Assembly (NCBI GenBank): GCA_000004695.1
Contig: CM000151.3
Coordinates: 7,104,001 to 7,168,000 of the forward strand
From: Dictyostelium discoideum
Lineage: Eukaryota
Length of the DNA: 64,000 bases
Direction: 5' to 3'
Shown: positions 3,804 to 59,633 of the stretch, piece by piece
How positions within the stretch are numbered: position 1 is the first letter of the stretch
Layout of the letters: each line of letters opens with the position of its first letter
Translations under genes and position numbers: made by a program
The notes under the pieces: model-generated
Seen by the model: only the letters and a program-made list of their open reading frames with translations
What the model was told of the DNA's origin: nothing
The model's database searches: none

Positions 3804-6920
<3,117 letters not shown>

Positions 6921-7034
6921 GGAACCAATGGTTTTATTTTATTTTTTTATTTTTTGGAAGAAAAAAAAATGGAAAAATAAGAGTATGAAAAAAGAAACAC
7001 CCTTTGCTTTTCTCACCTTTCTAGTAAAAAGAAA

Positions 7035-7071
<37 letters not shown>

Positions 7072-7125
7072 GAAAGATAGGTTTTGCCTATCAGGCAAAG
7101 CTTTTGGTTTCCAGCTTATTTATTG

Positions 7126-7160
<35 letters not shown>

Positions 7161-7695
7161 CCCAGATTTATTAAGAATAAAATCAATAAAAAATATATGT
7201 ACATAAAAAAAAAAAAAAAACTTTAAAAGTAATTATTTAAACATTATTTGTTTTATTTTTTTTATTTATTTTTTATTTTTTCGTTTTATTTTTTTTATTT
7301 ATTTTTTATTTTTTTAGTAATTTTATTTAATATGTTAAATTTGGTTTGATTTAAAAATTCAAATTTCCAATTAGATTTGTTGAACTTCGTAGTGATGGTA
7401 AAATAATTTTTTTTTTTTTTTTTTTTTTTTTTCCAAAAAACTAATAATGAATTATGCCAATAGTGTGAAGAATGAATAAATTTAAATTTAAATCCATCAA
7501 CGTAATATTTACACATTCTTTGTTTTTTCCTTTTTTTTTTTCTTTTTCTTTTTTTCTTTTCTTTTTTTTTTGTTTTTTTTTTTTTTTTTTTAAATTTTAA
7601 TTTTTTAATTTTATTTTTTTTTATTTTTATTTTTTTTTTTTGTTTTCATTTTTTTTTATTTTTTTATTTTTTTATTTTTATTTTTATTTTTATTT

Positions 7696-7741
<46 letters not shown>

Positions 7742-8258
7742 TAATATAAAACGAATTAATAATATTAATTTTTCATAAAATTTTAACATTATTTTTTCAA
7801 TCCATTTTATAAAACAAAAATTAATAGAAGACACCTTATAGTAATTATTAAAATAAATAAAAATAAAAAAACAATTTAGTAGCGCAATAACAGTGTCACA
7901 AACAAATACCAATTAGTTTTTCTTTTCTATTTTTGTTTTTTTTTTTACAAAAAAAAAAAAAAAATAAAAATAAATAAAGAAAATAATAAATAGAAAAAAA
8001 AAAAAAACAAGCAAAAACAAAGAGATTAGAAAAAATCAAATTGAAAAAAAAAAAAAACCAATTAATTTGGACAATGCAATCTTGTATGGGCAATAAATTA
8101 TCAAATATTAGCATAAGTGGAACTTCAACAGTTTGAATTGATAAAGTTTAAATAATTAAAAAATCAAATTCATTCATCCTTTTTCTCATTACCTCATTAT
8201 TTCTCTTAAAAAAAAAAAAAACAAAAAAAAAAAAAAAAAAAAAAAAAAGTTTTATAGT

Positions 8259-8361
8259 AATCAAAATCATAAAAATCATAGTCATAATCATCATATCATA
8301 ATCATAATAATCATAGTCATAAAATCATATTCATAGTCATAATCATAATAATCATAATCAA
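8259..8361. repeat. degenerate (ATCATA/GTCATA)n minisatellite upstream of the NYN gene
   Basis: Visible tandem aatcata / agtcata units flanked by long A-runs. Confidence 0.7.
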
Positions 8362-8403
8362 AATAGAATAATAATATAAAAAAAAAAAAAAAAAAAAAAA
8401 AAC

Positions 8404-8453
<50 letters not shown>

Positions 8454-8462
8454 AAAATTAAT

Positions 8463-8507
<45 letters not shown>

Positions 8508-8532
8508 TTGTTTCACTTTCAAAGCAAACACA

Positions 8533-8917
8533 ATGAACTTAAGTGATAGTGACAATGATACTTTGATAGCATCGTGTTTTGACTTTATTGATGTCGATGA
8601 AAACTATGATAATTCAGAAGATGAAGATGAACAATATAGCAACTCATCTTATAATTCAATGATCCCATTCTTTAAACCAACAACACCAACATCAGTAATT
8701 CCATCATCATCTTCATCTTCTTCTTCATCATCATCATCATCATCTTCTTCTTCAACAACTGCAACAACTGCAACTGCAACCACAACAACCACAACAACCA
8801 CAACAGCAGCAAACAATGTTGATAAAAATAATAAACAATTGAATAATAGTTTAATAAACAATAATAGCAATAACAACAATAACCATAGCAGCAGCAACAA
8901 CATTAGTAAAAATAATA

Positions 8918-8971
<54 letters not shown>

Positions 8972-11300
8972 TTAATAATAATAATATTAATAATAATAAA
9001 AACAATGATTCTGATGATGATTTATTTCAAAATAGTAGCTCAAATTTTGAAAATAAAAAAAACAGAAGAAGAGAGAGAATTAATAATAATAATAATAATA
9101 ATGAAAGTACTTCCACCACATCAACCACAACCAGCACACTTCCAGTTACAGGAGCAGCAACAGCAACAAAATCAGCGGCAACAACAGGAGCGGTTACACC
9201 AGTTATTCAATCATTACAACAGTTTCAAATTAATAATGATGTTAGCCATTCACCATCCTACCACTTTCAAGATCCACTAAAAATTAGTAAACCAAAGAAA
9301 ACCACCACCACTACTACCACCACCACTACAACCTCCTCTAGCTCAGTTAATTCTTCATCCAACCCTTTAATTTTAACAGCCAATGAGAGAAAATCAAAAA
9401 AAGATCAAAAACCTCAACCTCAACAACAGGTTGCCTCTACAAGTTCAGATGCCTCTGCTTTTAAAATTTTAAAAAGAAATGATGATCCAATTGGTAAGTT
9501 AAATAGAATCAAGTATCATAATACTTTAACCATTAATACTAATCGATTATATTATATAGATCCAGACCAATTAAATAAACTTTTCAAACATGGAAACCAA
9601 TCTTCATCACCAACAATCAACCCAATTTTAAAGCAACAACAACAAACAAATACTAAATCAAATAATGATATTTCAAATACAGGTAATATTAACTATAATA
9701 ACAATGGAAGAAGAGAAAGACAATCAAGAAATAAACCACAAAATAGATTGAATTCAGTAAATAGTAATATTAATAACAACAACAACAATAATAATATTAA
9801 TAATAATATTAATAATAACAATAACAATAACAATAACAATAACAATAACAATAACAATAACAATAACAATAATAATAATAATAATAATAATGATGATGAT
9901 GATGATGGATTATCAAATCAAAACAATGGTATTGATAAAAATGAAAAACTAAAGCAATTTGGTAGAGTTTTTGGAGAATCACCAATTCATTATGATTTAG
10001 ATACGGTTACATTTTTACCATCAAATATATTTCAAAAGGGTGAAGTTGTATTGGTACCAAGATCAAGAGGTGGTTTCACTTATGCAAAAATCTATGAAGC
10101 ATCAGATTCAAATATTTGTCATAATGATCCAACAGTTCATCATCATGTTGTTCAATACCGTGCGGTTTATCCATCAAATGGTAAAAGGGATAATCTTTAC
10201 AAGGATTTATCAGCAATTTACTTGGGTAAATTAATACCAATGGAAAGATTACCACCAAATGTCAAAAAGTATACATTAACCCCTCCAAATGAGAGCTTTT
10301 CAATCATTGGTCAAAAAGCATCGGTAAGAGATTTACAGGGTATTTTATTCTCACCATTTTCAAAGTTTCATATGAATCAAATCGTATTGGTACCAAGAAG
10401 TAAAGGTGGTTTCACTTATGGTTGTATCGTTAAGGAGTGTAGAGTAACTTGTAAAGTCAATGATGTTAAACATGATGTACAAGGTCATCGTGTAGTCGTT
10501 GAGAAGAGTAAAGATCATACCGTTATCAAGGATTTAGCAATTGGTAATCTCGGTAAAATATTTACATCTGTTGAAAATAATCAATCATCACTTAATCCAT
10601 TGAATGGTTTAAATTTAAATAGTAATAATAATAATAGCAATAACAATAGCAATAATAATAATAACAATAATAATAATAATAATACAAATTTAGTTACAAC
10701 AAATTTAAATAATAATAATAATTTTAAAATTAGACATTCAATTAGTAATGATAGATCATCACGTGGTGGCAACAATAATTTACGTAGTGGTGGTGGTGGT
10801 AGCAACAATAGGGATCATAAAAAGCAATCAAAGGAAAAGAGAAAGCAAAATCAATATGATCAATTAGCTGCTGCAATGCTACAAGAAATTGTCGAAAGTA
10901 ATCCAAAAAATATTAATAATAATAATGAGGAAGAGGATGAGGAGGATGAAGAGAATGAGGATGATAATATTCAAGTTAATGAAGAGGAAGATGGTGAATC
11001 ATCTGAGGTGGATGGGCCATTATCATCTGAAAATGAAGAAGAACAAGAAGTTGATGGAGATGATGAAGATGATGGAGATGATGAAGAAGATGATAATGAT
11101 GATGAAGAAAATGATGAGGATAGTGAGAAAGAGTATGAGGTTCAGGATAATCAAGAAAATCATTCAAATGAAATTGAACAAGATTCTGATGATAATGATG
11201 ATGAAGATGATGATGAAGAAGAAGAGGAAATCTTATGGACAGGTCAAAAATTAAATACTCCAGCAGTTTCTTCTGTACCAGTAATTACTTCTCAACCATC

Positions 11301-11390
<90 letters not shown>

Positions 11391-11539
11391 GCAACTTCAA
11401 GCTAAACCCCCTGTTACTCAACAAACATATCAACAACAAAATCGTCAAACAATCCCACCTCAACAACAGGTTTCCCAAACTTTAGCTCAACAACCAAAAC
11501 CACAATCACAACCACAACCACAGCCACAAATATTACAGC

Positions 11540-11574
<35 letters not shown>

Positions 11575-12132
11575 CCAAAAGTTAAAGCAGGAATATTTCA
11601 AATGCCAGTTGATGCAGAAGTATTTACAGGTAAAAAAAAGAAATCATCAAAATCAACATTAATTATTATTGATGGACCAAATGTAGCAAAAAGAAATAAA
11701 TCTAAATCATTTTCAGTTTCATCATTAAAGAAATCATTAGATTATTATATTCTCAGAGGTTATGATGTAGTTGCATTCGTTCCAGAATCATTTGCATCTA
11801 GAAAACCACATAATGATCCAAAAAAGACATTTACTATGTTTGATTACAATGATTTGGCAGATGATTTAGTTGGACTTCAAAAATTGACAGATTCAGGTTA
11901 TGTTTGTTTAACACCAGCTCAAGATTATGACGATAGCTATACCATTCATTATGCTAAAAAGAATGGTGCTTGTATCGTCACCAATGATCGTTACAATGAT
12001 CACATTGAAAAGCAACCAAATGAAATTGAAAAAGCCAAAACTAGAAAATTCATTAGAGATCATTGTATTTCCTTTGCTTTTGTTCGTAATGAATTCCTTC
12101 CAAATCCAGATTTCAAATTTCCAACAACATAA
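8533..12132 (+). CDS. large protein with a C-terminal NYN/Zc3h12a-like ribonuclease domain and two about 45-aa repeats (VLVPRSRGGFTY / VLVPRSKGGFTY)
   Basis: 1199-aa ORF. The C-terminus (TLIIIDGPNVA...VVAFVPESF...CIVTNDRYNDHIEK) has the Asp-rich NYN/PIN-like signature of N4BP1/KHNYN/MCPIP family RNases. Poly-S/T/N/Q and acidic tracts lie upstream. Confidence 0.6.
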
Positions 12133-12544
12133 ATTTAGAAAATCAATTGAACTTTGATCATTTTTATCTCCACTTTCTCTCAATCAGTCTATTTTTTTTT
12201 TTTCTTCAACTTGTTTGGAAAATGAATGATTTTTTTTTAAAAGTAAAATTTCCCAACTAGCAAAATTTCCTCTTCTCAAAAAAAAAAAAAAAAAAAAAAA
12301 AAAAACAAAAACAAAACAAAAAAACAAAAAAACAAAAAAAAAAGAAAAAAAAAAAAACCAAAACTATTCTATGGCTTACTTTTTATATACAAAAATAAAT
12401 AAATAAATAATCTTGATATATTTTTAAAAATTTTAATATTTTATTTACATGTTCCTAAGTGTACAGGCATTATTTTACAAATGCGAAATTGTTAACTATT
12501 TTAATTTTTTTTTTTTTTTTTTTTTTGGATAAATATTCATTTGT

Positions 12545-13037
12545 TTAAGAAATGATTAAAGGGATTGAAATTGAAATTGGTTTTCTACTAATTGAGTCTT
12601 TGTATTTAAGCTCCAACTCTGCTTGTGTGCTTGAAAGAGGAGTGGATGTTGGCTCATAGTATATATAGAAAAGTTGGTGTTCTTGAGGACTTAATGGAAT
12701 TGTACCTGGTTTACTAGTTTCACATATATTTTGGTCTCCTCTAAGATATGGAATTTTGAAACTTCCACAATCTCCTTTAATCTGTAATTCTAAATCTACC
12801 AAATCTAATCCATTATTTGTAATTGTAATATTTGCTTTATTATTATTCTATTTTATAGAAAAAAAAAAAAAAAATTAATATTAAAAAAAAAGAAAAAAAA
12901 AAAACAAAAAAAAAAAAAAAAAAAGATAATAATTATTTTTTTTTTTATTTATTTTTTTTTATTTTATTTATTTTTTATTTACATACTTGGCTGAAATTTA
13001 ATTTGGTTGGTTCAGCTTGAATTAAAGAATTTTCCAT
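12545..13037 (-). CDS. small 2-exon protein (about 117 aa), possible MSP/PapD-like beta-sandwich
   Basis: Exon 1 12987..13037 (MENSLIQAEPTKLNFSQ; donor GTATGT) and exon 2 12545..12847 (acceptor tattttatag; continues NNNKANITITNNGLDLVDLELQIKGDCGSFKIPYLRGD...). Phase 0 is consistent. The fold assignment is a guess from its pattern. Confidence 0.45.
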
Positions 13038-13484
13038 TTTGTTTTGATAATTATTAGTAATTGAGGGTGTGGGTGTGTTAAAAAATAAAAAAATAATGAG
13101 GAAAAAGTGTTTATATAAAAATCAATTTAAAAAAAATAAAAATAAAAACAAAAACAAAAATAAAAAAAAAAATAAAAAAAAAAAAATAAAAAATAAAAAA
13201 AAAAAATAAAATTAAAATAAAATTTGTTTTTTATTAATTTTAAAAAAAAAAAAATTATAAAAATGGATTTTGAAATTTACTGTCAATTTATTTTCAAATT
13301 GAGCCATGAATAGAAAAAAAAAAAAAAAAAAAAAAAAATAAAAAAAAAAAAAATAAAAAAAAATTTTAGAAAATTGGTTTTTTTAGTAAACTTGAATATT
13401 TTTTTTTTTTTCTTATGAGTTTTTAAGATAATGTAAAAAAAAAAAAAAAGAAATTATTATTCAAGTTTATTAAAAAATGAATTT

Positions 13485-13519
<35 letters not shown>

Positions 13520-13655
13520 CAAACCCATGGGTTTATAAATTTCGATGATATCTCAAAACAATTTCAATTTTTTATTTATTTTTTTTTATTTTTTATTTTT
13601 TTTTTTTCTTTTTTTTTTCTGTATTTTTTACAAATCTAATTTTTGATCTTTTTCC

Positions 13656-13690
<35 letters not shown>

Positions 13691-13770
13691 CAAAATTATT
13701 TTTTTTTTTTTTTTTTTTTTTTTTATTTTTACAAAAATTTTAAATACACAAAAATTTTAAATAAACAAAA

Positions 13771-14096
13771 ATGTCATTCAGAGGAAGACCAAGTGTAGCT
13801 TCAAGAAGATTTGGTAGAGGTGGCTTCAGCAGACATGGTGTCGCACCAAACCAACAAAAAGATAATGATCAATCATTGGAAAGCATAAATGCTAGTATGG
13901 ATTCAATTAATAATATCAATGATATTAGAGGAATAATTATAAATTCAAAATTAAATATACCACTTTCCAAATTAATTTTAAAATCATCATTCAAAGATGA
14001 ATTTATTGTTTTATTTTTAGTTTTATTAAACACTGTTGGTAAGTTTTTTTTTTTTTATTTTTTATTTTTATTTTTTTTTCATTATTTAAATTAACT

Positions 14097-14135
<39 letters not shown>

Positions 14136-16184
14136 ACAAAAAAAGATTTACATTCAAATGCAAAGATTAATTTTTTAGTATCAACATTTGATCTTAAATT
14201 ATATGATTTATCAAAATCATTATTAGAGACAAATAAATATACATTTATAGAGATTTCAAAATGTTTAAAGATTATGGACTCAAAAAGAATGATTAAAATC
14301 TTAAATAAAAGATTAGAAGAAATTAAAAGTAATCATGAAAGAAAATTAAAAGAGAAAAAGTTAGCAATAGAGAAAAGTTTAGAACAATTGTCAGTGGATG
14401 ATAATGAAATTCAAATGAAGAAAGAAGAGAAAAAACAACAAGAACATAAGAGATATTTAGAGAAAGTTGAGAAAAGAAAGAAAAGAATTGAAGAGTTTAG
14501 TAAAAAAGTTGACCAAACAAAATCAAAAAAACAATATGCTTTAAAAAAAGTTTTAATTAAAATGAAAGAACAAAAGAAAGTAGAGAAAGTCGTAAAGGGT
14601 GATAAGGAGGTGGTTTATAAGAATCGTTATGAAAATGCAGTTAAATCTGTGGAGAATAAAATTAGAGAATTGGTATCCTACCAATACGAATCTGGATTAT
14701 CTGGTAATGTTATAGCCATTTTCAAAAAGTTTTTTAAACAAGTACCACGTTCAACATTGGAATACTTTGCCTATGGCCAACCAAAGGCTACTTGGCGTGA
14801 AATTGCCAGACTGTTACATTTGGGTCCAAAAGATCTTTGTGATGAAATTCCATGGTTCCTTAGTGTTATGTTTGGTGGAAGTGCTCCAGTTGGTACACGT
14901 GTTTATGAATTTGAAAAGGAATTAAAAGATCCATCAAAATTCACTAAAGAAAGAGCCATTGAATTGATTAACCAATTCAAACCAACCTATGCATTCCTTA
15001 GAAAGAATTTACCAGAATCATTATTCGATGGCGAAATGAAAGCAATGGTTGCAGAGTATGAAGAAATCGATGCATTAATTTGGTGGTTAAATGAATTAGG
15101 AAAGGAGGAAAAGGTCATTGAAATTATCATTAAACGTATTACCAGTGGTAAAGAGTCTTTGAAAAATGTTAGCATTGGTACACTATTAGAGAGATCAATG
15201 GGTCTAAGTCAAGATTCGCCATTGTTCAATTGTTTATTCCCAGAGATTTTAAAGAAAATGACTGAACAAAGAGAGAAATTCGTTTTACCACCACCAATTT
15301 CCATTTTTGGTGATAAATCTGGTTCAATGGATGTTGCAATTCGTTTAAGTAATATCATTAGTTTCATTATTTCATCTTTGACACCAGGTGCCGAGTTATC
15401 ATTTTTCGATTGTAAAAATGTTCCATCGCCAATTCCAGTGGATTCTTTAGAGAATCTTTTCAAATTAAAAGACTTGGTCAAAGCATCGGGTGGTACAGAT
15501 CCAGGTGTGTCAATGTATAAACTTTTATCTGAAAAAGTTGTTAAAAACTATATTGTCGTGGTTACCGATGAAGAGGAAAATGGATATAAACATGGTAGAT
15601 TTAGCGAGTTGTTCATTCAATATCGTAAAGAGGTTGCACCAAATTGTAAATTAGTTTTCATTTCATTCATTCCTCAATACTCTGAAGGTCAAATGGTCGG
15701 TGAGTTACGTAGAAAAGGTTTCGATTCTTCAACTTTAATTCAAATTCCTTTCGATGCAACAAATCCTGATGTTTCAAAAATCGATGGTATGCTTTCAAGT
15801 TTATCTTGTGAATCTGAACAATTCAAAGATCAATTGGACCTCCTTGTTACTATTCTTTCAACAGTTGGTTATAAAAATGGTTTTAAATTCATTAATGATA
15901 GAGCACCTCTCTTAATGAGATTCGATTTAAATATTCAATTAGGTATTGAAAATGTTTTATCTATTATTAAAACTAATCCAACTTTAGATAACTATCAATA
16001 TTTAATGGTTAAAAATAATTTAAATCGTTTACTTAAAATCTCTAAAGATAATAATGATTTGGTTTCTCTTGAAACTTTTAATAATATTCATAAAGAATTT
16101 TCAAAATTATCAAAAGATGATGGTATTCAATATCTTTTAAAATCTTTATCAAATTTGCAACCAATTTCTGTTAAAGATAATTAA
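13771..16184 (+). CDS. vWA-domain protein (MIDAS DKSGSM), Ro60/TROVE-like C-terminus, K/E-rich coiled-coil N-terminal region
   Basis: Exon 1 13771..14038 (MSFRGRPSVASRRFGRGG...; donor GTAAGT; phase 1) and exon 2 14146..16184, which continues in frame. The vWA segment ISIFGDKSGSMDVAI...ASGGTDPG...YIVVVTDEEENG resembles the Ro60 vWA/MIDAS region. Confidence 0.55.
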
Positions 16185-16523
16185 AAATTAAAAATAAAAA
16201 ATAAAAAAAATAAACAAATTTGTATTATTAATTTTTCTATACATTTTTTTTTTATTTTTATTTTTATTTTTTTTTTATTAAAAAATTTTTAATTAAATTT
16301 AAAATATATACAAATAATTAAAATGATATAAAATAATTTGTTTTTTTATTTTTTTCCGATTAAAAATTTCATCATTCTCATTTAATTCCCACATTCATGT
16401 GAAAATATTTTTCTTTTTTTTTTTTTATCTTTTTATCATTTTTTTTTTTTTTTTTTTTTTTTTTATATTTTATTTTTAATCAACAAGTAAAAATTACATA
16501 TCAAAGTAATAAAAATAAAAAAA

Positions 16524-17231
16524 ATGTCACAAAATTATACCTATTCAAAATTAAAGAAACCAAGTTATGTATCAGGTTCCAGTAATAAATCATCTTCACA
16601 TACAACATCGTCATCACCTTATAAAAAAAAAGAAATTGAACCAAAAGAAAACTATGAACCAATAACACCTGAAGGAGTTTATTTATATGATAAAGATTAC
16701 ACACATTTTGTAGTTCATTGTAGTAAATCATCATATAATGAATATATTGGTAGATATAATCCAAAATTTCCATCAACAAATAATTATAAATTTGGTAATC
16801 CATTTGTTGTAGGAAAAGATGGTGATCGTAATACAGTAGTTAAAAAATATAGAGATTGGATATTTTCACCAGAACAAAATGATTTATTTAATGCTGCAAA
16901 GGAATTGAAAGGTAAAATACTTGCTTGTTGGTGTTCACCTTTAAATTGCCATGGTTTTGTTTTATCTGAAATTGCCAATTCATCAATTACAAATAAACCA
17001 GAGCAAATATTACAACAATCTGAGGTAATATCTCAACAACCACAACAATCCCAACAACCACAACAAACACAACAAACACAACAAACACAACAAACACAAC
17101 CACAGCAACCACCACAACCAGTACAATCCCAACCAAAAATTCAAACAAGATCCTCTACAATGTCAACGTCAGATTTAAAAAAACCTTTGTTTGATGATAA
17201 GGATTTTCCACCTTTGGGAGGTAAAAAATAA
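16524..17231 (+). CDS. DUF4326-like domain protein with Q/P-rich tail (235 aa)
   Basis: ORF from the ATG at 16524. The core FVVHCSKSSYNEYIGRYNPKF...KFGNPFVVGKDGDRNTVVKKYRDWIF...LKGKILACWCSPLNCHGFVL matches the DUF4326 signature, which is mostly bacterial or phage (SxYDVYIGR...WGNPF...Y..W...L.GK.L.CWC.P..CH). Confidence 0.55.
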   Translation: MSQNYTYSKLKKPSYVSGSSNKSSSHTTSSSPYKKKEIEPKENYEPITPEGVYLYDKDYTHFVVHCSKSSYNEYIGRYNPKFPSTNNYKFGNPFVVGKDGDRNTVVKKYRDWIFSPEQNDLFNAAKELKGKILACWCSPLNCHGFVLSEIANSSITNKPEQILQQSEVISQQPQQSQQPQQTQQTQQTQQTQPQQPPQPVQSQPKIQTRSSTMSTSDLKKPLFDDKDFPPLGGKK

Positions 17232-17314
17232 ATAAAATTAATTAATTAATCATTCAATAATAAAATTTAAAAAAAGTTTTTAATGTGTGTTTTTGGTATA
17301 AATTTAGTATAACG

Positions 17315-17357
17315 AAAATGAGGTTTTTTATATATAAAATTAAAAAAACCTCATTTT
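17315..17357. other. perfect 15-bp inverted repeat (hairpin) with a 13-nt loop, 84 bp past the stop of the DUF4326 gene
   Basis: AAAATGAGGTTTTTT at 17315..17329 is the exact reverse complement of AAAAAACCTCATTTT at 17343..17357. Confidence 0.6.
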
Positions 17358-17500
17358 TAATTTAAACATCTAAATATGTGTCAAATAATCGTTTGTTAAA
17401 TTAATTAATTACGACACCCATTTTGTTGGGTATAAATATTTTATAGGATTTTTTTTTTTTTAATAACATCACTCAATTTGAGTGTGTTCTAGGAGAGTTT

Positions 17501-17540
<40 letters not shown>

Positions 17541-17544
<4 letters not shown>

Positions 17545-17677
17545 CTTGTTATTCTTATTTTTTTTATTATTATTATTATTATTATATTATTATTATTATT
17601 ATATTATTATTATTATATTATTATTATTATATTATTATTATTATTATATTATTATTATTATTATTATTGTTATAATT
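17541..17677. repeat. (ATT)n-based compound microsatellite ((ATT)4ATA periodicity)
   Basis: Visible tandem attattattattata units flanked by T-runs. Confidence 0.8.
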
Positions 17678-18640
17678 TTTTTTTTTTTTTTTTTTTTTTT
17701 TTATGAGTAGTTGGTGTTATATGAGCAGTATGGTATGAAGTGTTCCGGGATGTTTATGGTCATGAGTTTCGAGTTCCAGTTGTGGCTGAATTTTTCGAGT
17801 CTTCTTTTTATTGATGCGGTCCGATTGATTGACTCTCGGTTATCAGTGCATCTTAGTTCTTGACGTAGTTGTTTTTCTACTATCTTTCTTGTTCTATCCC
17901 ATTCGGCATCTCTCGCTTTTTTGATTTTATGAATTATTTGGTTCTCTGTTATTATTGTAGTGTTATCGTTGAATTTTATTTGATTTCTTCTGTACCATAT
18001 CGATTCCATAATGGCTCCTATCAGATTTGATGAGAATGGTGTGAGTAGTTTTCCGAGAACTTTTTCGCTCCATGGACCGTGGTAAGTGTTGTTGGAGTCT
18101 TTACAGACCTTTTGATAGATTGAGTCGATATTCTGTTTTATTGATTTGCATTCGAAGAAGATGTGCATAGACGATTCTTCTTCTTTACATGAGTGGCAAT
18201 TCTCCCCATGGTGTTTTGAAAGTGCCTTGAGTAGATATCTCCATGCTAAGTCTCTTCCTTTGATAGTTGTGATTGATCTGGCTTCTCTAAATGGTAGAAT
18301 TGGGTGATTAATGTTCTTTTGAATCAGTTTTTGACCTGTTGTTGGCTGGTGTTTGTTCCATCCCTTGTATTTGATATCCATCATGTTTCTATAGATTACT
18401 TTTAATTTTTGTTTGTTTTCGTATTTGGGTTTGACTTGGTTTAGTTTGAGAGTTATTCGCTCTCTTGGGTGGTGCAACAACTTCCAGGCTTTCCAGCATT
18501 TGATGTGAATCCTTGATAGTGAGTTTTCTTTTTCCGACTTCCAGACTTCCATATGTGGAGGGCAGTTCTGGTCGTCTTTTTCTCTGAGGTATTGTTCGTA
18601 TATCCATGCTTTCTGGGCATTGGATCTGGTTGCCATATTC
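17678..18640 (-). mobile_element. 5'-truncated non-LTR retrotransposon fragment (TRE5/DRE-like ORF2 C-terminus with CCHC-type Cys/His motif and A-tail)
   Basis: The 311-aa minus-strand ORF 17701..18636 is not AT-biased and contains HSCKEEESSMHIFFECKSIK, a Zn-knuckle-like motif found at the end of ORF2. Its 3' end is followed by A23 (T-run 17678..17700 on top). Its 5' end lies about 60 bp from the 5' end of tRNA-Ala, the classic TRE5 target position. Confidence 0.55.
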
Positions 18641-18698
18641 CAGAGTTCCAGTATTTTATAGGAATTCGAATACGACGTTCTTTATAAAAATCATCAAA

Positions 18699-18771
18699 GG
18701 GGATGTAGCTCAGATGGTAGAGCGCTCGCTTAGCATGCGAGAGGTAAAGGGATCGATACCCTTCTTCTCCA
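18699..18771 (+). tRNA. tRNA-Ala (anticodon AGC)
   Basis: GGGGATGTAGCTCAGATGGTAGAGCGCTCGCTTAGCATGCGAGAGGTAAAGGGATCGATACCCTTCTTCTCCA folds as a cloverleaf. It has the G3:U70 Ala identity pair, anticodon loop TTAGCAT, and A-box TAGCTCAGATGG and B-box GGATCGATACC. There is one T:T mismatch at 6:67. Confidence 0.8.
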
Positions 18772-19869
18772 TTAAATTTCTAGAGAAATTAAGATCGCTA
18801 GTTCGATTCCACTAGGAACTTACACTAAGATATTGAAACTCGGTAAATCACTATATTTGTTATTTAGAATTTATATCCGATTTTTGGGTTGTGTATTTTA
18901 ATGGATAAACGATCAATATTAAAAAAAAAAAAAAAATTTCCTATCCAGAACCCTAGAATAAACAAACATAATGGTTTTAATTTCCAACATCTGGGTTTGG
19001 ATCTGCAATGGACAGTATAGTCACCATCAAGTCTCCTTCGACCAATTTTTTGGGTAGTAACAATTTTATTATTTGATCAATCAACTGGATATTTAAAAAA
19101 AATAATAAAAAAAAAAATTATAATAATAACAGTACTATATTTTAAAATTAAAAGTATCTATTTATTTTAAATGTTTTATAATGTGTTTTATTATTTAAAA
19201 TTTTTTTTTTTATTATTATTGTTTTGCCTTTTATTACTTTCTTTAATTTTTGATTTTTAACCTTGGAAAAAAAAGTGAACAAATTTAATTGGACTAAATT
19301 ATTTGTTACTAAAACTTAAATTACTTTTTTTTTTTTATTATGTAGGACTATTAATTTTGTTTTATTTATTGAAAAAAGTAGCTTTTTCCAAAATTTTTTT
19401 TTTTTTTTTTTAAAAGTCCCAGTGTCATAATTTTTATTTTTTTAAATTTTTTTTTTTTTTTTATTTTTTTTTTTTTTTTTTTGCAAATAGTTATATATCA
19501 TATTACACAAATTGATTTAAAAAAAAAAAAAAAAAAAATTTAAAAAATTAAACACCCCCTATAGTGGTTTTTTTTTTTATTTATTTATTTAATTTTTCAA
19601 TTATTCATATAATTCACTCGATATTGTAACTTTTATTTCATTTTTTCATTTTTTTTTTAAATTTAATTTTTTTTTTTTTTAATAAAATTAATTTTTTATA
19701 TACATTTTAATTTTTTTATTTTTTATTTTTTTATTTTTTTTTTATTCATACCCCTTTATCTAAACGACTCACCCATATACAACAAAATTCATAATAATAA
19801 AAAAAAAAAAAAAAAAAAATAAAATAATAAAAAAAAAAAAAATCAACTTATTAATTGTTATTTTATATT

Positions 19870-39861: not shown

Positions 39862-40625
39862 ATGACAAACAACAATTTAAATAAAGAAGGTAATTATTTA
39901 TTAAATAAAAATAAAAAAATAAAAAAAAAAATAAAAGTTTAAATTATTAATTTTTTAATTACATATATATGTTTTAATTAGTTAATCATTTAGAAAAAGA
40001 AGCAGTATCAGCATATGATAATACAAAAGAAGCAACAATTAATGCATACAATGCAACAACAAATGCAGTGAGTGATGGTATGAAATATGTTGGTGATTCA
40101 TTATCATCAGCAGTCGAAGTAACAAAAGATGCAACAATCAATATGTATAATGCAACAACTAATGCAGTGAGTGATGGTTATGAATCTTTAAAATCAAAAA
40201 CAAATGAATTAATCAGCAATACTCAAAATGAAAATGAAAATTTAAAAGATGGTGCTTCAAAGAAAATCGAAGAATTAAAAGATAAATCAAGTGAAGTAAA
40301 AGATAATTTAAAGGGAAAAGGTGAAGAACTAGTTGACGATGCTAAAGATGCTGCTCATAATGCTTCAAATAAATTGAATAATGCTAAAGATCAAGTTTCT
40401 GATAAAATGGATAATGTAAAAGATGATATAAAGAAAAAAGGTGAAGAAATAGTTGACAATTCTAAAGATGCTGCCAATAATACTTCAAATAAAATGAATA
40501 ATGTTAAAGATCAAGTTTCTGATAAAATGGAACATGTAAAACATGATATATCAAATAAATACAATGAAACAAAAACAGAAGCTTCCCATAAACTAAATCA
40601 AGCTGCAAATAAAATCGACCAATAA
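39862..40625 (+). CDS. LEA/apolipophorin-like hydrophilic repeat protein, array copy 1 (2 exons, about 223 aa)
   Basis: Exon 1 39862..39889 (MTNNNLNKE plus G; donor GT at 39890) and exon 2 39982..40625. The product continues VNHLEKEAVSAYDNTKEATINAYNATTNAVSDGMKYVGDSLSS... with about 40-aa repeats (KDAAHNASNKLNNAKDQVSDKMDNVKDDIKKKGEEIVD). Confidence 0.65.
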
Positions 40626-45873: not shown

Positions 45874-46633
45874 ATGACAAACAACAATTTAAATAAAGAA
45901 GGTTGGTATATAACTACCCCAATATGAAATTTAATTTAATATATAGTTATTAATATAATTTTTTTTTTTTTTAAAATTACAAAATTTAGTTAATCATTTA
46001 GAAAAACAAGCAGTATCAGCATATGATAATACAAAAGAAGCAACAATCAACGCATACAATGCAACAACAAATGCAATGAGTGATGGTATGAAATATGTTA
46101 GTGACTCATTATCATCAGCAGTCGAAGTAACAAAAGATGCAACAATCAATATGTATAATGCAACAACTAATGCAGTGAGTGATGGTTATGAATCTTTAAA
46201 ATCAAAAACAAATGAATTAATCAACAATACTCAAAATGAAAATGAAAATTTAAAAGATGGTGCTTCAAAGAAAATCGAAGAATTAAAAGATAAATCAAGT
46301 GAAGTAAAAGATAATTTAAAGGAAAAAGGTGAAGAACTAGTTGACGATGCTAAAGATGCCGCTCATAATGCTTCAAATAAATTGAATAACGCTAAAGATC
46401 AAGTTTCTGATAAAATGGATAATGTAAAAGACGATATAAAGAAAAAAGGTGAAGAAATAGTTGACAATTCTAAAGATACTGCCAATAATACTTCAAATAA
46501 AATGAATAATGTTAAAGATCAAGTCTCTGATAAAATGGAACATGTAAAACATGATATGTCAAACAAATACAATGAAACAAAAACAGAAGCTGCTCATAAA
46601 CTAAATCAAGCTGCAAATAAAATCGATCAATAA
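45874..46633 (+). CDS. LEA-like repeat protein, array copy 2
   Basis: Exons 45874..45901 and 45990..46633. The frame is open through both exons and the internal ATG is at 46076. Confidence 0.65.
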
Positions 46634-47706: not shown

Positions 47707-48462
47707 ATGACAAACAACAATTTAAATAAAGAAGGTTGGTATTGAACTAATCCAATATGAAATATATTTTAAAATATTAATAAAATTTTTTATTTATTTT
47801 CAAAATTACAAAATTTAGTTAATCATTTAGAAAAACAAGCAGTATCAGCATATGATAACACAAAAGAAGCAACAATCAATGCATACAATGCAACAACAAA
47901 TGCAATGAGTGATGGTATGAAATATGTTGGTGATTCATTATCATCAGCAGTCGAAGTAACAAAAGATGCAACTATCAATATGTATAATGCAACAACTAAT
48001 GCAGTGAGTGATGGTTATGAATCTTTAAAATCAAAAACAAATGCATTAATCAACAATACTCAAAATGAAAATGAAAATTTAAAAGATGGTGCTTCAAAGA
48101 AAATCGAAGAATTAAAAGATAAATCAAGTGAAGTAAAAGATAATTTAAAGGGAAAAGGTGAAGAACTAGTTGACGATGCTAAAGATGCTGCTCATAATGC
48201 TTCAAATAAATTAAATAACGCTAAAGATCAAGTTTCTGATAAAATGGATAATGTAAAAGACGATATAAAGAAAAAAGGTGAAGAAATAGTTGACGATGCT
48301 AAAGATACTGCCAATAATGCCTCAGATAAATTGAATAATGTTAAAGATCAAGTCTCTGATAAAATGGAACATGTAAAACATGATATGTCAAACAAATACA
48401 ATGAAACAAAAACAGAAGCTGCTCATAAACTAAATCAAGCTGCAAATAAAATCGATCAATAA
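47707..48462 (+). CDS. LEA-like repeat protein, array copy 3
   Basis: Exons 47707..47734 and 47819..48462. Confidence 0.65.
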
Positions 48463-51345: not shown

Positions 51346-52107
51346 ATGACAAACAACAATTTAAATAAAGAAGGTTGGTATATAACTACTCCAATATGAA
51401 ATTTAATTTAATATATAGTTATTAATATAATTTTTTTTTTATTTTCAAATTTATAAAATTTAGTTAATCATTTAGAAAAACAAGCAGTATCAGCATATGA
51501 TAATACAAAAGAAGCAACAATCAACGCATACAATGCAACAACAAATGCAATGAGTGATGGTATGAAATATGTTAGTGATTCATTATCATCAGCAGTCGAA
51601 GTAACAAAAGATGCAACTATCAATATGTATAATGCAACAACTAATGCAGTGAGTGATGGTTATGAATCTTTAAAATCAAAAACAAATGAATTAATCAACA
51701 ATACTCAAAATGAAAATGAAAAGTTAAAAGATGGTGCTTCAAAGAAAATCGAAGAATTAAAAGATAAATCAAGTGAAGTAAAAGAAAATCTAAAAGAAAA
51801 AGGTGAAGAACTAGTTGACGATGCTAAAGATGCCGCTCATAATGCTTCAAATAAATTGAATAACTCTAAAGATCAAGTTTCTGATAAAATGGATAATGCA
51901 AAAGACGTAATTAAGAAAAAAGGTGAAGAAATAGTTGACGATTCTAAAGATACTGCCAATAATACTTCAAATAAAATGAATAATGTTAAAGATCAAGTTT
52001 CAGATAAAATGGAACATGTAAAACATGATATATCAAATAAATACAATGAAACAAAAACAGAAGCTGCTCATAAACTAAATCAAGCTGCAAATAAAATCAA
52101 CCAATAA
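51346..52107 (+). CDS. LEA-like repeat protein, array copy 4
   Basis: Exons 51346..51373 and 51464..52107. Confidence 0.65.
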
Positions 52108-55327: not shown

Positions 55328-55852
55328 ATGAGTGATGGTATGAAATATGTTGGTGATTCATTATCATCAGCAGTCGAAGTAACAAAAGATGCAACTATCA
55401 ATATGTATAATGCAACAACTAATGCAGTGAGTGATGGTTATGATTTTTTAAAATCAAAAACAAATGAATTAATCAGCAATACTCAAAATGAAAATGAAAA
55501 TTTAAAAGATGGTGCTTCAAAGAAAATCGAAGAATTAAAAGATAAATCAAGTGAAGTAAAAGATAATTTAAAGGAAAAAGGCGAAGAACTAGTTGACGAT
55601 GCTAAAGATGCTGCTCATAATGCTTCAAATAAATTGAATAACGCTAAAGATCAAGTTTCTAATAAAATGGATAATGTAAAAGATGATATAAAGAAAAAAG
55701 GCGAGGAAATAGTTGACGATGCTAAAGATGCTGCCAATAAAGCTTCTGATAAAATGGAACATGTAAAACATGATATATCAAATAAATACAATGAAAAAAA
55801 AACAGAAGCTGCTCATAAACTAAATCAAGCTGCAAATAAAATCGACCTATAA
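55328..55852 (+). CDS. LEA-like repeat protein, array copy 5 (174 aa from the internal ATG; one 40-aa repeat fewer)
   Basis: The upstream mini-exon (55124..55151, ATGACCAAC...) and intron are present. A 1-nt insertion (gaaaaagaaAgc at about 55255..55262) shifts the N-terminal extension out of frame and gives a TGA after 12 codons. The open frame therefore starts at ATG 55328. Confidence 0.5.
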   Translation: MSDGMKYVGDSLSSAVEVTKDATINMYNATTNAVSDGYDFLKSKTNELISNTQNENENLKDGASKKIEELKDKSSEVKDNLKEKGEELVDDAKDAAHNASNKLNNAKDQVSNKMDNVKDDIKKKGEEIVDDAKDAANKASDKMEHVKHDISNKYNEKKTEAAHKLNQAANKIDL

Positions 55853-58757: not shown

Positions 58758-59633
58758 ATGACAAACAACAATTTAAATAAAGAAGGTTGGTATACAATGT
58801 TATGAAATATAATTTAATATATAGTTATTAATAAAAATTTTTTTATTTATTAATAATTACAAAATTTAGTTAATCGTTTAGAAAAACAAGCAGTATTAGT
58901 ATATGATAATACAAAAGAAGCAACAATCAATGCATACAATGTCACAACAAACGCAATGAGTGATGGTATGAAATATGTTAGTGATTCATTATCATCAGCA
59001 GTCGAAGTAACAAAAGATGCAACTATCAATATGTATAATGCAACAACTAATGCAGTGAGTGATGGTTATACATCTTTAAAATCAAAAACAAGTGAATTAA
59101 TCAGCGATACTCAAAATGAAAATGAAAATTTAAAAGATGGTGCTTCAAAGAAAATCGAAGAATTAAAAGATAAATCAAGTGAAGTAAAAGATATTTTAAA
59201 GGAAAAAGGTGAAGAACTAGTTGAAGATGCTAAAGATGCTGCTCATAATGCTTCAAATAAATTGAATAATGCTAAAGATCAAGTTTCTGATAAAATGGAT
59301 AATGTAAAAAATGATATAGAGAAAAAAGGTGACGATGCTAAAGATGCTAAAGATGCTGCCAATAATGTTTCAAATAAAATGAATAATGTTAAAGATCAAG
59401 TTTCTGATAAAATGGATAATATTAAAGACGATATAAAGAAAAAAGGTAAAGAATTAGTTGACGATGCTAAAGATGCTGCCAATAATGCTTCAAATAAATT
59501 GAATAACGCTAAAGATCAAGTTTCAGATAAAATGGAACATGTAAAACATGATATATCAAACAAATACAATGAAACAAAAACAGAAGCTGCTCCTAAACTA
59601 AATCAAGCTGCAAATAAAATCGACCAACAATAA
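58758..59633 (+). CDS. LEA-like repeat protein, array copy 6 (longest; 225 aa from the internal ATG, three 40-aa repeats)
   Basis: Exons 58758..58785 and 58870..59633. Confidence 0.65.

Follow-up and report, generated by a model that had tools for sequence, protein, structure and literature searches.

A DUF4326 gene in Dictyostelium discoideum

We analysed a 64,000-nt stretch of the Dictyostelium discoideum genome (GenBank assembly GCA_000004695.1, contig CM000151.3, positions 7,104,001 to 7,168,000 of the forward strand). This whole stretch is called the window, and all positions are given in its coordinates. Its DNA is AT-rich (21% GC). On the + strand, an unbroken open reading frame (ORF) runs from an ATG at 16524 to a TAA at 17229-17231 and encodes a protein of 235 aa with a DUF4326 domain. 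A first-pass annotation, made from the sequence alone, had proposed a DUF4326-like domain and a horizontal acquisition of the gene. We are confident in a different overall picture, in which this is an old DUF4326 gene, inherited vertically by the social amoebae. The gene and its parts are listed below, with confidence values given as the predicted local distance difference test (pLDDT).

16524-17231, + strand: single-exon DUF4326 gene, 235 aa, stop codon included (ORF list, Pfam, end-to-end orthologue alignment)
16524-16631, + strand: Ser-rich N-terminal tail, aa 1-36, predicted disordered (pLDDT 40-46; variable among orthologues)
16632-16709, + strand: dictyostelid-specific N-terminal extension of the domain, aa 37-62, EIEPKENYEPITPEGVYLYDKDYTHF (kept in all dictyostelid orthologues)
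16710-16988, + strand: DUF4326 core, aa 63-155 (Pfam match at aa 64-149, AlphaFold2 domain-only model, secondary structure)
16755-16790, + strand: eukaryote-type insert, aa 78-89, YNPKFPSTNNYK, with a GRxNP signature, between IGR and (W/F)GNPF
16926-16952, + strand: invariant C135-W-C137-S-P139-L-N-C142-H143, putative active or metal site at a strand-loop-helix junction
17004-17201, + strand: Q/P/S/T-rich low-complexity linker, aa 161-226, predicted disordered (pLDDT mostly <50; orthologues vary in length and sequence)
17202-17219, + strand: C-terminal short linear motif DFPPLG, aa 227-232, with acidic residues before it and GKK-stop after it

The protein matches the Pfam-A family PF14216 (DUF4326) at aa 64-149 with 85.2 bits (E=4.8e-24), against a curated gathering cutoff of 25 bits, and the match covers profile positions 4-82 of 82. 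The domain assignment of the first-pass annotation is thus confirmed, and the protein also matches PHROG 464 (E=3.6e-24). Orthologues align with it end to end, from MSQNYTYSK to DFPPLGGKK, in keeping with a single exon here. The listed signature motifs are present as YNEYIGR (aa 71-77), KFGNPF (89-94), YRDW (109-112), LKGKILACWCSP (128-139) and CHG (142-144). Only the spacing of the first cysteine had been misread, since four residues and not two precede the tyrosine (C66-SKSS-Y71). The Ser-rich N-terminus and the Q/P-rich tail are both there as described, and both are predicted to be disordered. The exact protein is absent from a collection of 15 billion sequences, where the nearest entry is a D. 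discoideum strain protein; the strain proteins are 95-97% identical to it and differ only in low-complexity tracts.

A domain-only AlphaFold2 model built from a 50-sequence alignment reached a pLDDT of 92.8 and a predicted template modelling score (pTM) of 0.87, and residues 11-20 of this model, which lie in the N-terminal extension, have a pLDDT of 94. That extension (aa 37-62) was covered solely by dictyostelid-type matches in our exhaustive HMMER search. In the full-length model the folded core spans about aa 61-155, and the pLDDT is below 50 for aa 1-60 and most of aa 161-217. The core is a compact domain of ~95 aa with a three-stranded sheet and helices, in which the CxCxPxxCH loop lies between a β-strand and a helix. 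It begins with the strand VVHC (63-66), YIGR, the 12-residue insert (78-89) and the (W/F)GNPF loop. Two helices (102-113 and 116-126), the strand ILACW (133-135), the CxCxPxxCH loop and a helix (143-152) ending in EIAN follow. No second globular domain was found in the dictyostelid DUF4326 proteins.

Conservation was assessed over 441 aligned domains. C135, C137, P139, C142 and H143 are conserved in ~100% of them, H65 in 95% and C66 in 86%. Y74, G76, R77, N92, P93, R102 and H65 are conserved at 95% or more and are all kept here, and R77, N92, R102, Y74, E127 and K131 form a set of near-invariant polar residues. YIGR, (W/F)GNPF, R102 and CWCxPxxCH are all present, with column frequencies of 0.91-1.00 and conservative departures at F90 (for W) and N72/E73 (for D/V). 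Since all invariant residues of the family are kept, this is not a decayed copy. The gene is a new, intact member of the known but uncharacterised DUF4326 family.

Inheritance among dictyostelids and the neighbouring genes

We found orthologues in ten species of dictyostelids, including, besides further D. discoideum strains, D. citrinum, D. firmibasis, D. purpureum, Polysphondylium violaceum, Tieghemostelium lacteum, Acytostelium subglobosum, Heterostelium album and Cavenderia fasciculata. All four classical groups of dictyostelids are represented, and their divergence is commonly dated to several hundred million years ago. The orthologues share one layout: a Ser-rich N-terminus, an extension with EPxENxxPI...LY, the core, EIANSS, a low-complexity linker and a C-terminal DFPxLG. 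Some of the gene models are unusual. The H. album model (P0016 on contig L169, 517 aa) appears to be an artificial fusion, in which a signal-peptide/transmembrane protein is joined through a 309-nt non-canonical 'intron'. A EukProt model of 1,757 aa (P0018), which starts with CH and GAS2 domains, likewise appears to be fused artificially with an upstream gene.

The exon structure of the orthologues bears on the origin of the gene. In C. fasciculata, an 87-nt GTATGT...AG intron interrupts the domain at CHAMV|LAEIAN. Two introns were found in the A. subglobosum gene; the first of them recurs at the same place in H. album (YIGRxNPx|I|D), within the GRxNP insert. The genes of T. lacteum, D. purpureum and D. 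firmibasis have no intron, like the window gene. Because other genera carry introns inside the domain, the intronless state in D. discoideum is a lineage state and not a foreign mark. Intron presence and codon usage, which the first-pass annotation had suggested comparing, both turned out against an import: three orthologues have GT..AG introns inside the domain, and the GC content at third codon positions (GC3) of the gene is 0.10, inside the 0.07-0.21 range of the neighbouring ORFs. The GC3 of the domain is 0.065.

Gene order is also conserved. The D. firmibasis locus is colinear with window positions 8,071-18,787 (~10.7 kb), with an NYN-RNase gene, a small gene, a 636-aa gene, the DUF4326 gene and tRNA-Ala(AGC) in the same order. 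A SCAPER-like gene adjoins the orthologue in both T. lacteum and A. subglobosum, which are only distantly related, showing microsynteny across genera. This SCAPER_N-domain gene lies at 6853-9693 of the T. lacteum contig (L166) and at 1-2668 of the A. subglobosum contig (L170), and is convergent with the DUF4326 gene in one and divergent in the other. In the window, no SCAPER_N gene stands beside the DUF4326 gene.

Two features follow the gene downstream.

17480-18640, - strand: retroelement-like fragment in the gap between gene and tRNA, outside the DUF4326 gene (GC3, tail sequence, absence from the D. firmibasis locus)
18699-18771, + strand: tRNA-Ala(AGC), found with ARAGORN (same relative position in D. 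firmibasis)

The site had been called a retroelement-rich tRNA site. The adjoining tRNA gene stands, but 'retroelement-rich' is too strong, since a single fragment is seen between the gene and the tRNA. It carries an ORF of 311 aa at 17701-18636 (- strand) with a GC3 of 0.43, compared with ~0.1 for the host genes, and an A-rich/(AAT)n tail at ~17490-17700. The fragment lies ~250 bp from the DUF4326 gene and stops 63 bp upstream of the tRNA gene. In appearance it is a 5'-truncated non-LTR element of the tRNA-targeted kind. Retroelements that target tRNA genes are known in Dictyostelium, and an insertion beside a tRNA gene fits them. The DUF4326 gene and the tRNA are 1,467 bp apart here but 709 bp apart in D. 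firmibasis, and the fragment accounts for the difference. Its absence from the colinear D. firmibasis locus indicates a later, lineage-specific insertion unrelated to the origin of the DUF4326 gene.

Other genes of the window were recorded as well. The NYN-RNase gene, placed two genes upstream of the DUF4326 gene, is a 1,199-aa ORF at 8533-12132 (+ strand) with a C-terminal Zc3h12a-type NYN ribonuclease domain (E=6e-23), and it is syntenic in D. firmibasis. Between it and the DUF4326 gene lies the 636-aa gene, at 14274-16184; neither this upstream gene nor the retroelement ORF (17701-18636) has a Pfam match. Further downstream, six tandem paralogous ORFs on the + strand (40068-40625, 46076-46633, 47905-48462, 51550-52107, 55328-55852 and 58956-59633) encode proteins of 174-225 aa that are 71-96% identical, with YtxH-like and apolipoprotein-like amphipathic-helix repeats. 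They form a recently expanded cluster.

Place in the DUF4326 family and origin

We then investigated the family as a whole. The exhaustive HMMER search yielded 6,847 matching cluster representatives at E<=1e-3. Together with many loci from prokaryotic metagenome-assembled genomes (MAGs) and IMG/VR, and with matches to phages and nucleocytoplasmic large DNA viruses in BFVD, this agrees with the first-pass description of a family found mostly in bacteria, phages and giant viruses. The strongest named matches outside the orthologues come from eukaryotes: Dracoamoeba, whose protein carries two domains in tandem; the diatoms Cylindrotheca and a Bacillariaceae species; bdelloid rotifers, whose matches are RRM-DUF4326 proteins; and EukProt transcripts. 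Two close unlabelled relatives (P0040 and P0165) are encoded on long contigs with Arf, PI-PLC, RGS, EF-hand and split protein-kinase genes, indicating that these contigs are eukaryotic nuclear DNA. Tandem architectures, with two or three DUF4326 domains joined by short linkers, occur in the Dracoamoeba protein (P0019), in P0017 and in the P0020 cluster (P0159-P0163); the papers that we consulted do not describe them.

For comparison, we took the 160 best prokaryotic and viral loci, 80 from prokaryotic MAGs and 80 from IMG/VR. The core identity of the best of these loci is 50-56%, about equal to that of the non-dictyostelid eukaryotic matches, so percent identity gives no useful ranking of possible donors. 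In BFVD, the isolated proteins of phages and giant viruses are 20-37% identical to the window protein. The best-scoring 'prokaryotic' matches are three DUF4326 copies on contigs (L003, L004 and L007) binned as one archaeal Nitrososphaerales MAG (MFD10007.bin.1.217), and they have an unusually long insert, PSLAIRRDIxGSDGR.

A neighbour-joining (NJ) tree was built from 357 domains and 99 columns with 100 bootstrap replicates. The dictyostelids are monophyletic (bootstrap 77/100) and lie inside successively larger clades with labelled eukaryotes; of the 160 prokaryotic and viral loci, just 3 belong to the 123-leaf clade around them. Several points weigh against a placement among eukaryotes. The deep nodes have no bootstrap support; the first labelled neighbour of the dictyostelid clade is eukaryotic alone in 27 of the 100 replicates, viral alone in 28 and mixed in 36; and the placement rests on discrete characters and contig contexts. 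As the deep nodes are unsupported and the nearest labelled neighbours unstable, we did not rely on the tree and used these characters and contexts. The first-pass annotation had named nesting in a broad eukaryotic clade as a result that would speak against horizontal acquisition. Such nesting is seen in the NJ topology, in the contig contexts and in two shared characters, though the deep nodes of the tree lack bootstrap support.

The first character is the GRxNP insert, which is found in 14/14 dictyostelid domains, 6/15 eukaryote-labelled or eukaryote-context ones, 0/80 prokaryotic MAG loci and 1/80 IMG/VR loci. The second is an acidic-FPxLG tail, present in 14/14 dictyostelids, both diatoms and eight further relatives, and in 0/157 prokaryotic or IMG/VR ORFs. 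In 2,000 tail shuffles, the 24 proteins with an FPxLG tail compare with a mean of 1.9 and a maximum of 7; outside the dictyostelids, 10 are observed and 1.6 expected from shuffled tails. These characters make it probable that the Dictyostelium protein belongs to a eukaryote-type DUF4326 subfamily, defined by the IGRxNP insert and the FPxLG tail. The single IMG/VR locus with the insert (L090) was considered as a donor and rejected: it is an ordinary phage-like contig, encoding a 115-aa stand-alone DUF4326 protein with 44% identity.

Alternatively, a stem dictyostelid or amoebozoan might have captured the gene from a bacterium or a large DNA virus, the diatom, rotifer and protist genes being separate captures or products of transfer between eukaryotes. 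We consider such an ancient acquisition unlikely. It would explain why the named eukaryotes (Amoebozoa, diatoms and bdelloid rotifers) are patchily distributed, and bdelloid rotifers are known for foreign genes. It also agrees with the lack of resolution at the deep nodes, with prokaryotic and viral cores (50-55%) that are as similar as the non-dictyostelid eukaryotic ones, and with the presence of DUF4326 in giant viruses of amoebae. However, the long GRxNP insert and the acidic-FPxLG tail are common to dictyostelids and diatoms and absent from the 160 prokaryotic and viral loci, apart from the one phage insert, which points to a single eukaryotic lineage of the gene. In the NJ tree, too, the dictyostelids stand among sequences of eukaryotic context. 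Because the eukaryotic distribution is patchy and the deep nodes lack support, a transfer from a prokaryote or virus into an early eukaryote stays tenable, although only weakly so.

A recent acquisition in the D. discoideum lineage from a bacterium, a phage or an amoeba-infecting giant virus, perhaps through a retroelement/tRNA hotspot, can be dismissed as highly improbable: the mostly prokaryotic and viral family, the intronless gene, the fragment ~250 bp away and the DUF4326 gene exchange reported between Medusavirus (ORF330) and Acanthamoeba castellanii (PMC6450098) speak for it, but it is contradicted by orthologues with the same tails across all dictyostelid groups, domain introns in other genera, synteny with a D. 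firmibasis locus that has no retroelement, a host-like GC3, the low identity of the isolated viral proteins and the best MAG and IMG/VR loci, which are at most 56% identical, without the tail motif and, except for one phage contig, without the insert. The orthologue, intron and synteny data reject a recent or dictyostelid-specific import, and the acquisition put forward in the first-pass annotation finds no support as something recent or tied to this locus.

Possible functions of the core and the tail

DUF4326 has been placed in the rhodanese-phosphatase superfamily, with a predicted role in processing terminal ribose phosphates on ADP-ribose (ADPr) derivatives (Iyer, Burroughs, Aravind et al.; PMC9503650, PMC7824862). 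In the full-length model, strand 133-135 is followed by C135-W-C137-S-P-L-N-C142-H143 and then by helix 143-152, a geometry that fits a Cys-phosphatase-type site. Our own tests agree only weakly with this placement. Single family members gave sub-threshold Pfam matches to DUF488-N3a (E=0.068), DUF488 (E=0.21) and PTPase (E=0.27). The best fold match is RapZ (RapZ-C), with all scores below significance. Burroughs and Aravind reportedly grouped DUF4326 with RapZ-C and DUF488 in 2023 (in NAR Genom Bioinform). Foldseek gave no matches against the PDB, PADLOC and NCBIfam searches gave none either, and a PDB sequence search with the protein and the 50-sequence profile returned nothing meaningful (best kallikrein, E=0.2, and an SLC30A9 fragment, E=0.84).

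Domain fusions in close relatives offer another view of the core. We found DUF4326-KH-AKAP7-type 2H phosphoesterase (P0056), DUF4326 with an AlkB-like 2-oxoglutarate oxygenase (P0044), DUF4326-TatD in three proteins (one with an added CCCH finger), DUF4326-RNase T and DUF4326-LigT-type 2H phosphoesterase. RRM-DUF4326 is common, and fusions with CCCH, NADAR, SLOG/DprA and PHP also occur. These partners cut, trim, de-alkylate or heal nucleic-acid ends or bind RNA. The most economical reading is an end-processing enzyme, which would take a phosphate or related group off a ribose.

We therefore tentatively suggest that the core may be an enzyme acting on nucleic-acid or nucleotide sugar-phosphates. 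It would be small, cysteine-dependent and phosphatase-like, with sugar-phosphates at RNA or other nucleic-acid ends, or ADPr-derived nucleotides, as substrates. Candidate reactions are the removal of a 2'- or 3'-phosphate left by cleavage or by 2H-phosphoesterase action, and the removal of the 1''-phosphate from ADP-ribose-1''-phosphate. The nucleophile would be C137 or C135, with the phosphate held by R77, R102 and H143. Such an activity might complement 2H phosphoesterases and 3'-5' exonucleases.

Several observations weigh against an enzyme of this type. The loop is C-X5-H and not the canonical C-X5-R, and three invariant cysteines with one histidine would suit a metal site, structural or catalytic, just as well. 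The scores of NADAR structures are as good as those of RapZ. An hhalign comparison of the DUF4326 profile with a YeaO-type DUF488 profile gave a probability of 0.4%, a weak negative given how shallow the DUF488 profile is (>=70% identity, enterobacterial only).

The core might be no enzyme but a small Cys3-His zinc module, serving as an adaptor or sensor through its binding of nucleic acid or a nucleotide ligand, a view to which we give a low probability. The near-complete conservation of C135, C137, C142 and H143, with H65 and C66 slightly behind, would suit it. So would the missing CX5R arginine, the very small size of the domain, its frequent fusion to catalytic partners that could supply the chemistry, and RapZ-C, an RNA-binding adaptor domain, as the best structural match. 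What it leaves unexplained are the near-invariant polar residues of pocket type (R77, N92, R102, Y74, E127 and K131); moreover, stand-alone versions of 85-120 aa are very common in phages and bacteria, and the published comparative analysis predicts catalysis (PMC9503650, PMC7824862). A divergent NADAR/YbiA-like N-glycosidase, removing ADP-ribose or cleaving ribosyl N-glycosidic bonds, is very unlikely; neither a hidden Markov model match to NADAR/YbiA (PF08719) nor a confident fold similarity was found.

We next consider the tail. DFPPLG (aa 227-232), placed four residues before the C-terminus, belongs to a tail of pLDDT <60, where the local confidence rises slightly, and it is the sole strictly conserved feature outside the core in the dictyostelid proteins. 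Cryo-EM and mutagenesis have established FPxL as the motif through which ZAK (FPPLIK) and SERBP1, at its extreme C-terminus (F404 and L407 of 408 residues), interact with RACK1; the motif has also been proposed for LARP4 and RNF10 (PMC12823453; bioRxiv 10.64898/2026.08.26.747346). F417/L420 of ZAK and F404/L407 of SERBP1 occupy a groove at blades 2-3 of RACK1. The Dictyostelium motif has the features that characterise these sites, namely F-P-x-L/F in a disordered segment that is conserved among orthologues. The tail motif is duplicated in two relatives, as SFPPLS and DFPSLS in D. purpureum (P0015) and as NFPILG and SFPQLG in the EukProt model P0018, which suggests that motif copy number can vary.

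The disordered tails may act as targeting devices, with the FPxL motif tethering the enzyme to a partner, of which RACK1 on the 40S head is the most plausible; in other members from eukaryotes, a fused RRM, KH or CCCH domain would give access to RNA instead. The likeness to known FPxL motifs in sequence, position and disorder raises the possibility that eukaryote-type DUF4326 proteins dock on RACK1, and such docking would fit the RNA-binding fusions of the sister proteins. We nevertheless regard RACK1 docking of the FPxLG tail as doubtful. Counting against it, the motif has only four residues, ~6% of ribosome-associated proteins contain FPxL (bioRxiv 10.64898/2026.08.26.747346), and the FPxL of UBAP1 binds the coiled-coil of HD-PTP (PMC5145805).

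The tail could also be read by a partner different from RACK1, such as a Bro1/Alix-type V or coiled-coil domain of the endosomal-sorting (ESCRT) pathway, in which case the protein would not be ribosome-associated. This is a possible reading, although on the unlikely side. The UBAP1 motif bound by HD-PTP resembles the YPxnL motifs bound by Alix (PMC5145805), the motif is short, and in diatoms it is not terminal but stands 47-53 residues before the C-terminus. On the other hand, an acidic-FPxL motif in a disordered near-C-terminal tail parallels SERBP1, FPPL followed by Lys parallels FPPLIK of ZAK, and the RNA-binding domains of sister eukaryotic DUF4326 proteins fit a ribonucleoprotein target better than endosomal sorting.

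Taken as a whole, a vertically inherited eukaryote-type DUF4326 protein with a phosphatase-like core and targeting tails is, on balance, the explanation that we favour. A further step, which is speculative and rather improbable as it stands, would be that eukaryote-type DUF4326 proteins are ribosome-tethered enzymes of RNA-end processing or repair, with the FPxLG tail on RACK1 and the Cys-loop domain freeing cleaved or damaged mRNA, tRNA or rRNA of blocking phosphates or ADP-ribose-derived groups. RNA ends at the ribosome would then be the candidate substrate class, which is consistent with the 2H phosphoesterase, exonuclease, AlkB-like and RNA-binding fusions in other eukaryotes. The proposed RACK1 site is the one used by SERBP1, ZAK, LARP4 and RNF10, and is also a site of ribosome-collision sensing. 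If true, a very large family without a known function would gain its first cellular role, and RACK1 a previously unnoticed client in a tractable model organism. DUF4326 comprises at least 6,800 clusters at 50% identity, has no experimentally known function, and is prominent in conflict systems between phages or giant viruses and their hosts. Dictyostelium has a single, conserved, stand-alone eukaryotic version, with the putative catalytic residues intact and a tail identical in form to the RACK1-docking motif, which makes it a practical organism for learning what DUF4326 does. The gene is a conserved host gene and not a fresh import, and the neighbouring retroelement is incidental. New here are the definition of the eukaryote-type subfamily by insert and FPxLG tail, its fusion partners and the proposal of ribosome tethering.

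Comparison with known systems

The closest known proteins are the PF14216 proteins of phages, bacteria and giant viruses (PHROG 464; Pithovirus, Marseillevirus, Pandoravirus and Mimivirus), which have the same domain with YIGR, WGNPF and CxCxPxxCH, the viral ones being fold matches in BFVD with a probability of 1.0. They are mostly stand-alone proteins of 85-120 aa, or occur as fusions with SLOG, Macro, NADAR or DNA-replication modules. Unlike them, the Dictyostelium protein has the eukaryote-type insert, the dictyostelid N-terminal extension, long disordered tails and the FPxLG motif. Within the rhodanese-phosphatase/RapZ-C group, RapZ-C itself is an RNA-binding adaptor and not a proven enzyme.

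A second comparison is with ASCC1, which combines KH and 2H phosphodiesterase domains and is a partner of ALKBH3 in alkylation damage responses (PMC11214414). The same modules are fused to DUF4326 in other organisms, KH-2H in P0056 and the AlkB-like domain in P0044. The Dictyostelium protein has no KH, 2H or AlkB domains, and its link to the ASCC1-ALKBH3 system is one of guilt by association through those fusions.

The third comparison is with the RACK1-motif proteins ZAK, SERBP1, LARP4 and RNF10. These are unrelated to the Dictyostelium protein and share with it the motif alone; RACK1 binding by DUF4326 is putative, and no second RACK1-contacting helix (RIH) was identified in the Dictyostelium protein. 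The motif itself stands in a disordered region, lies near the extreme C-terminus as in SERBP1, and reads FPPL as in ZAK.

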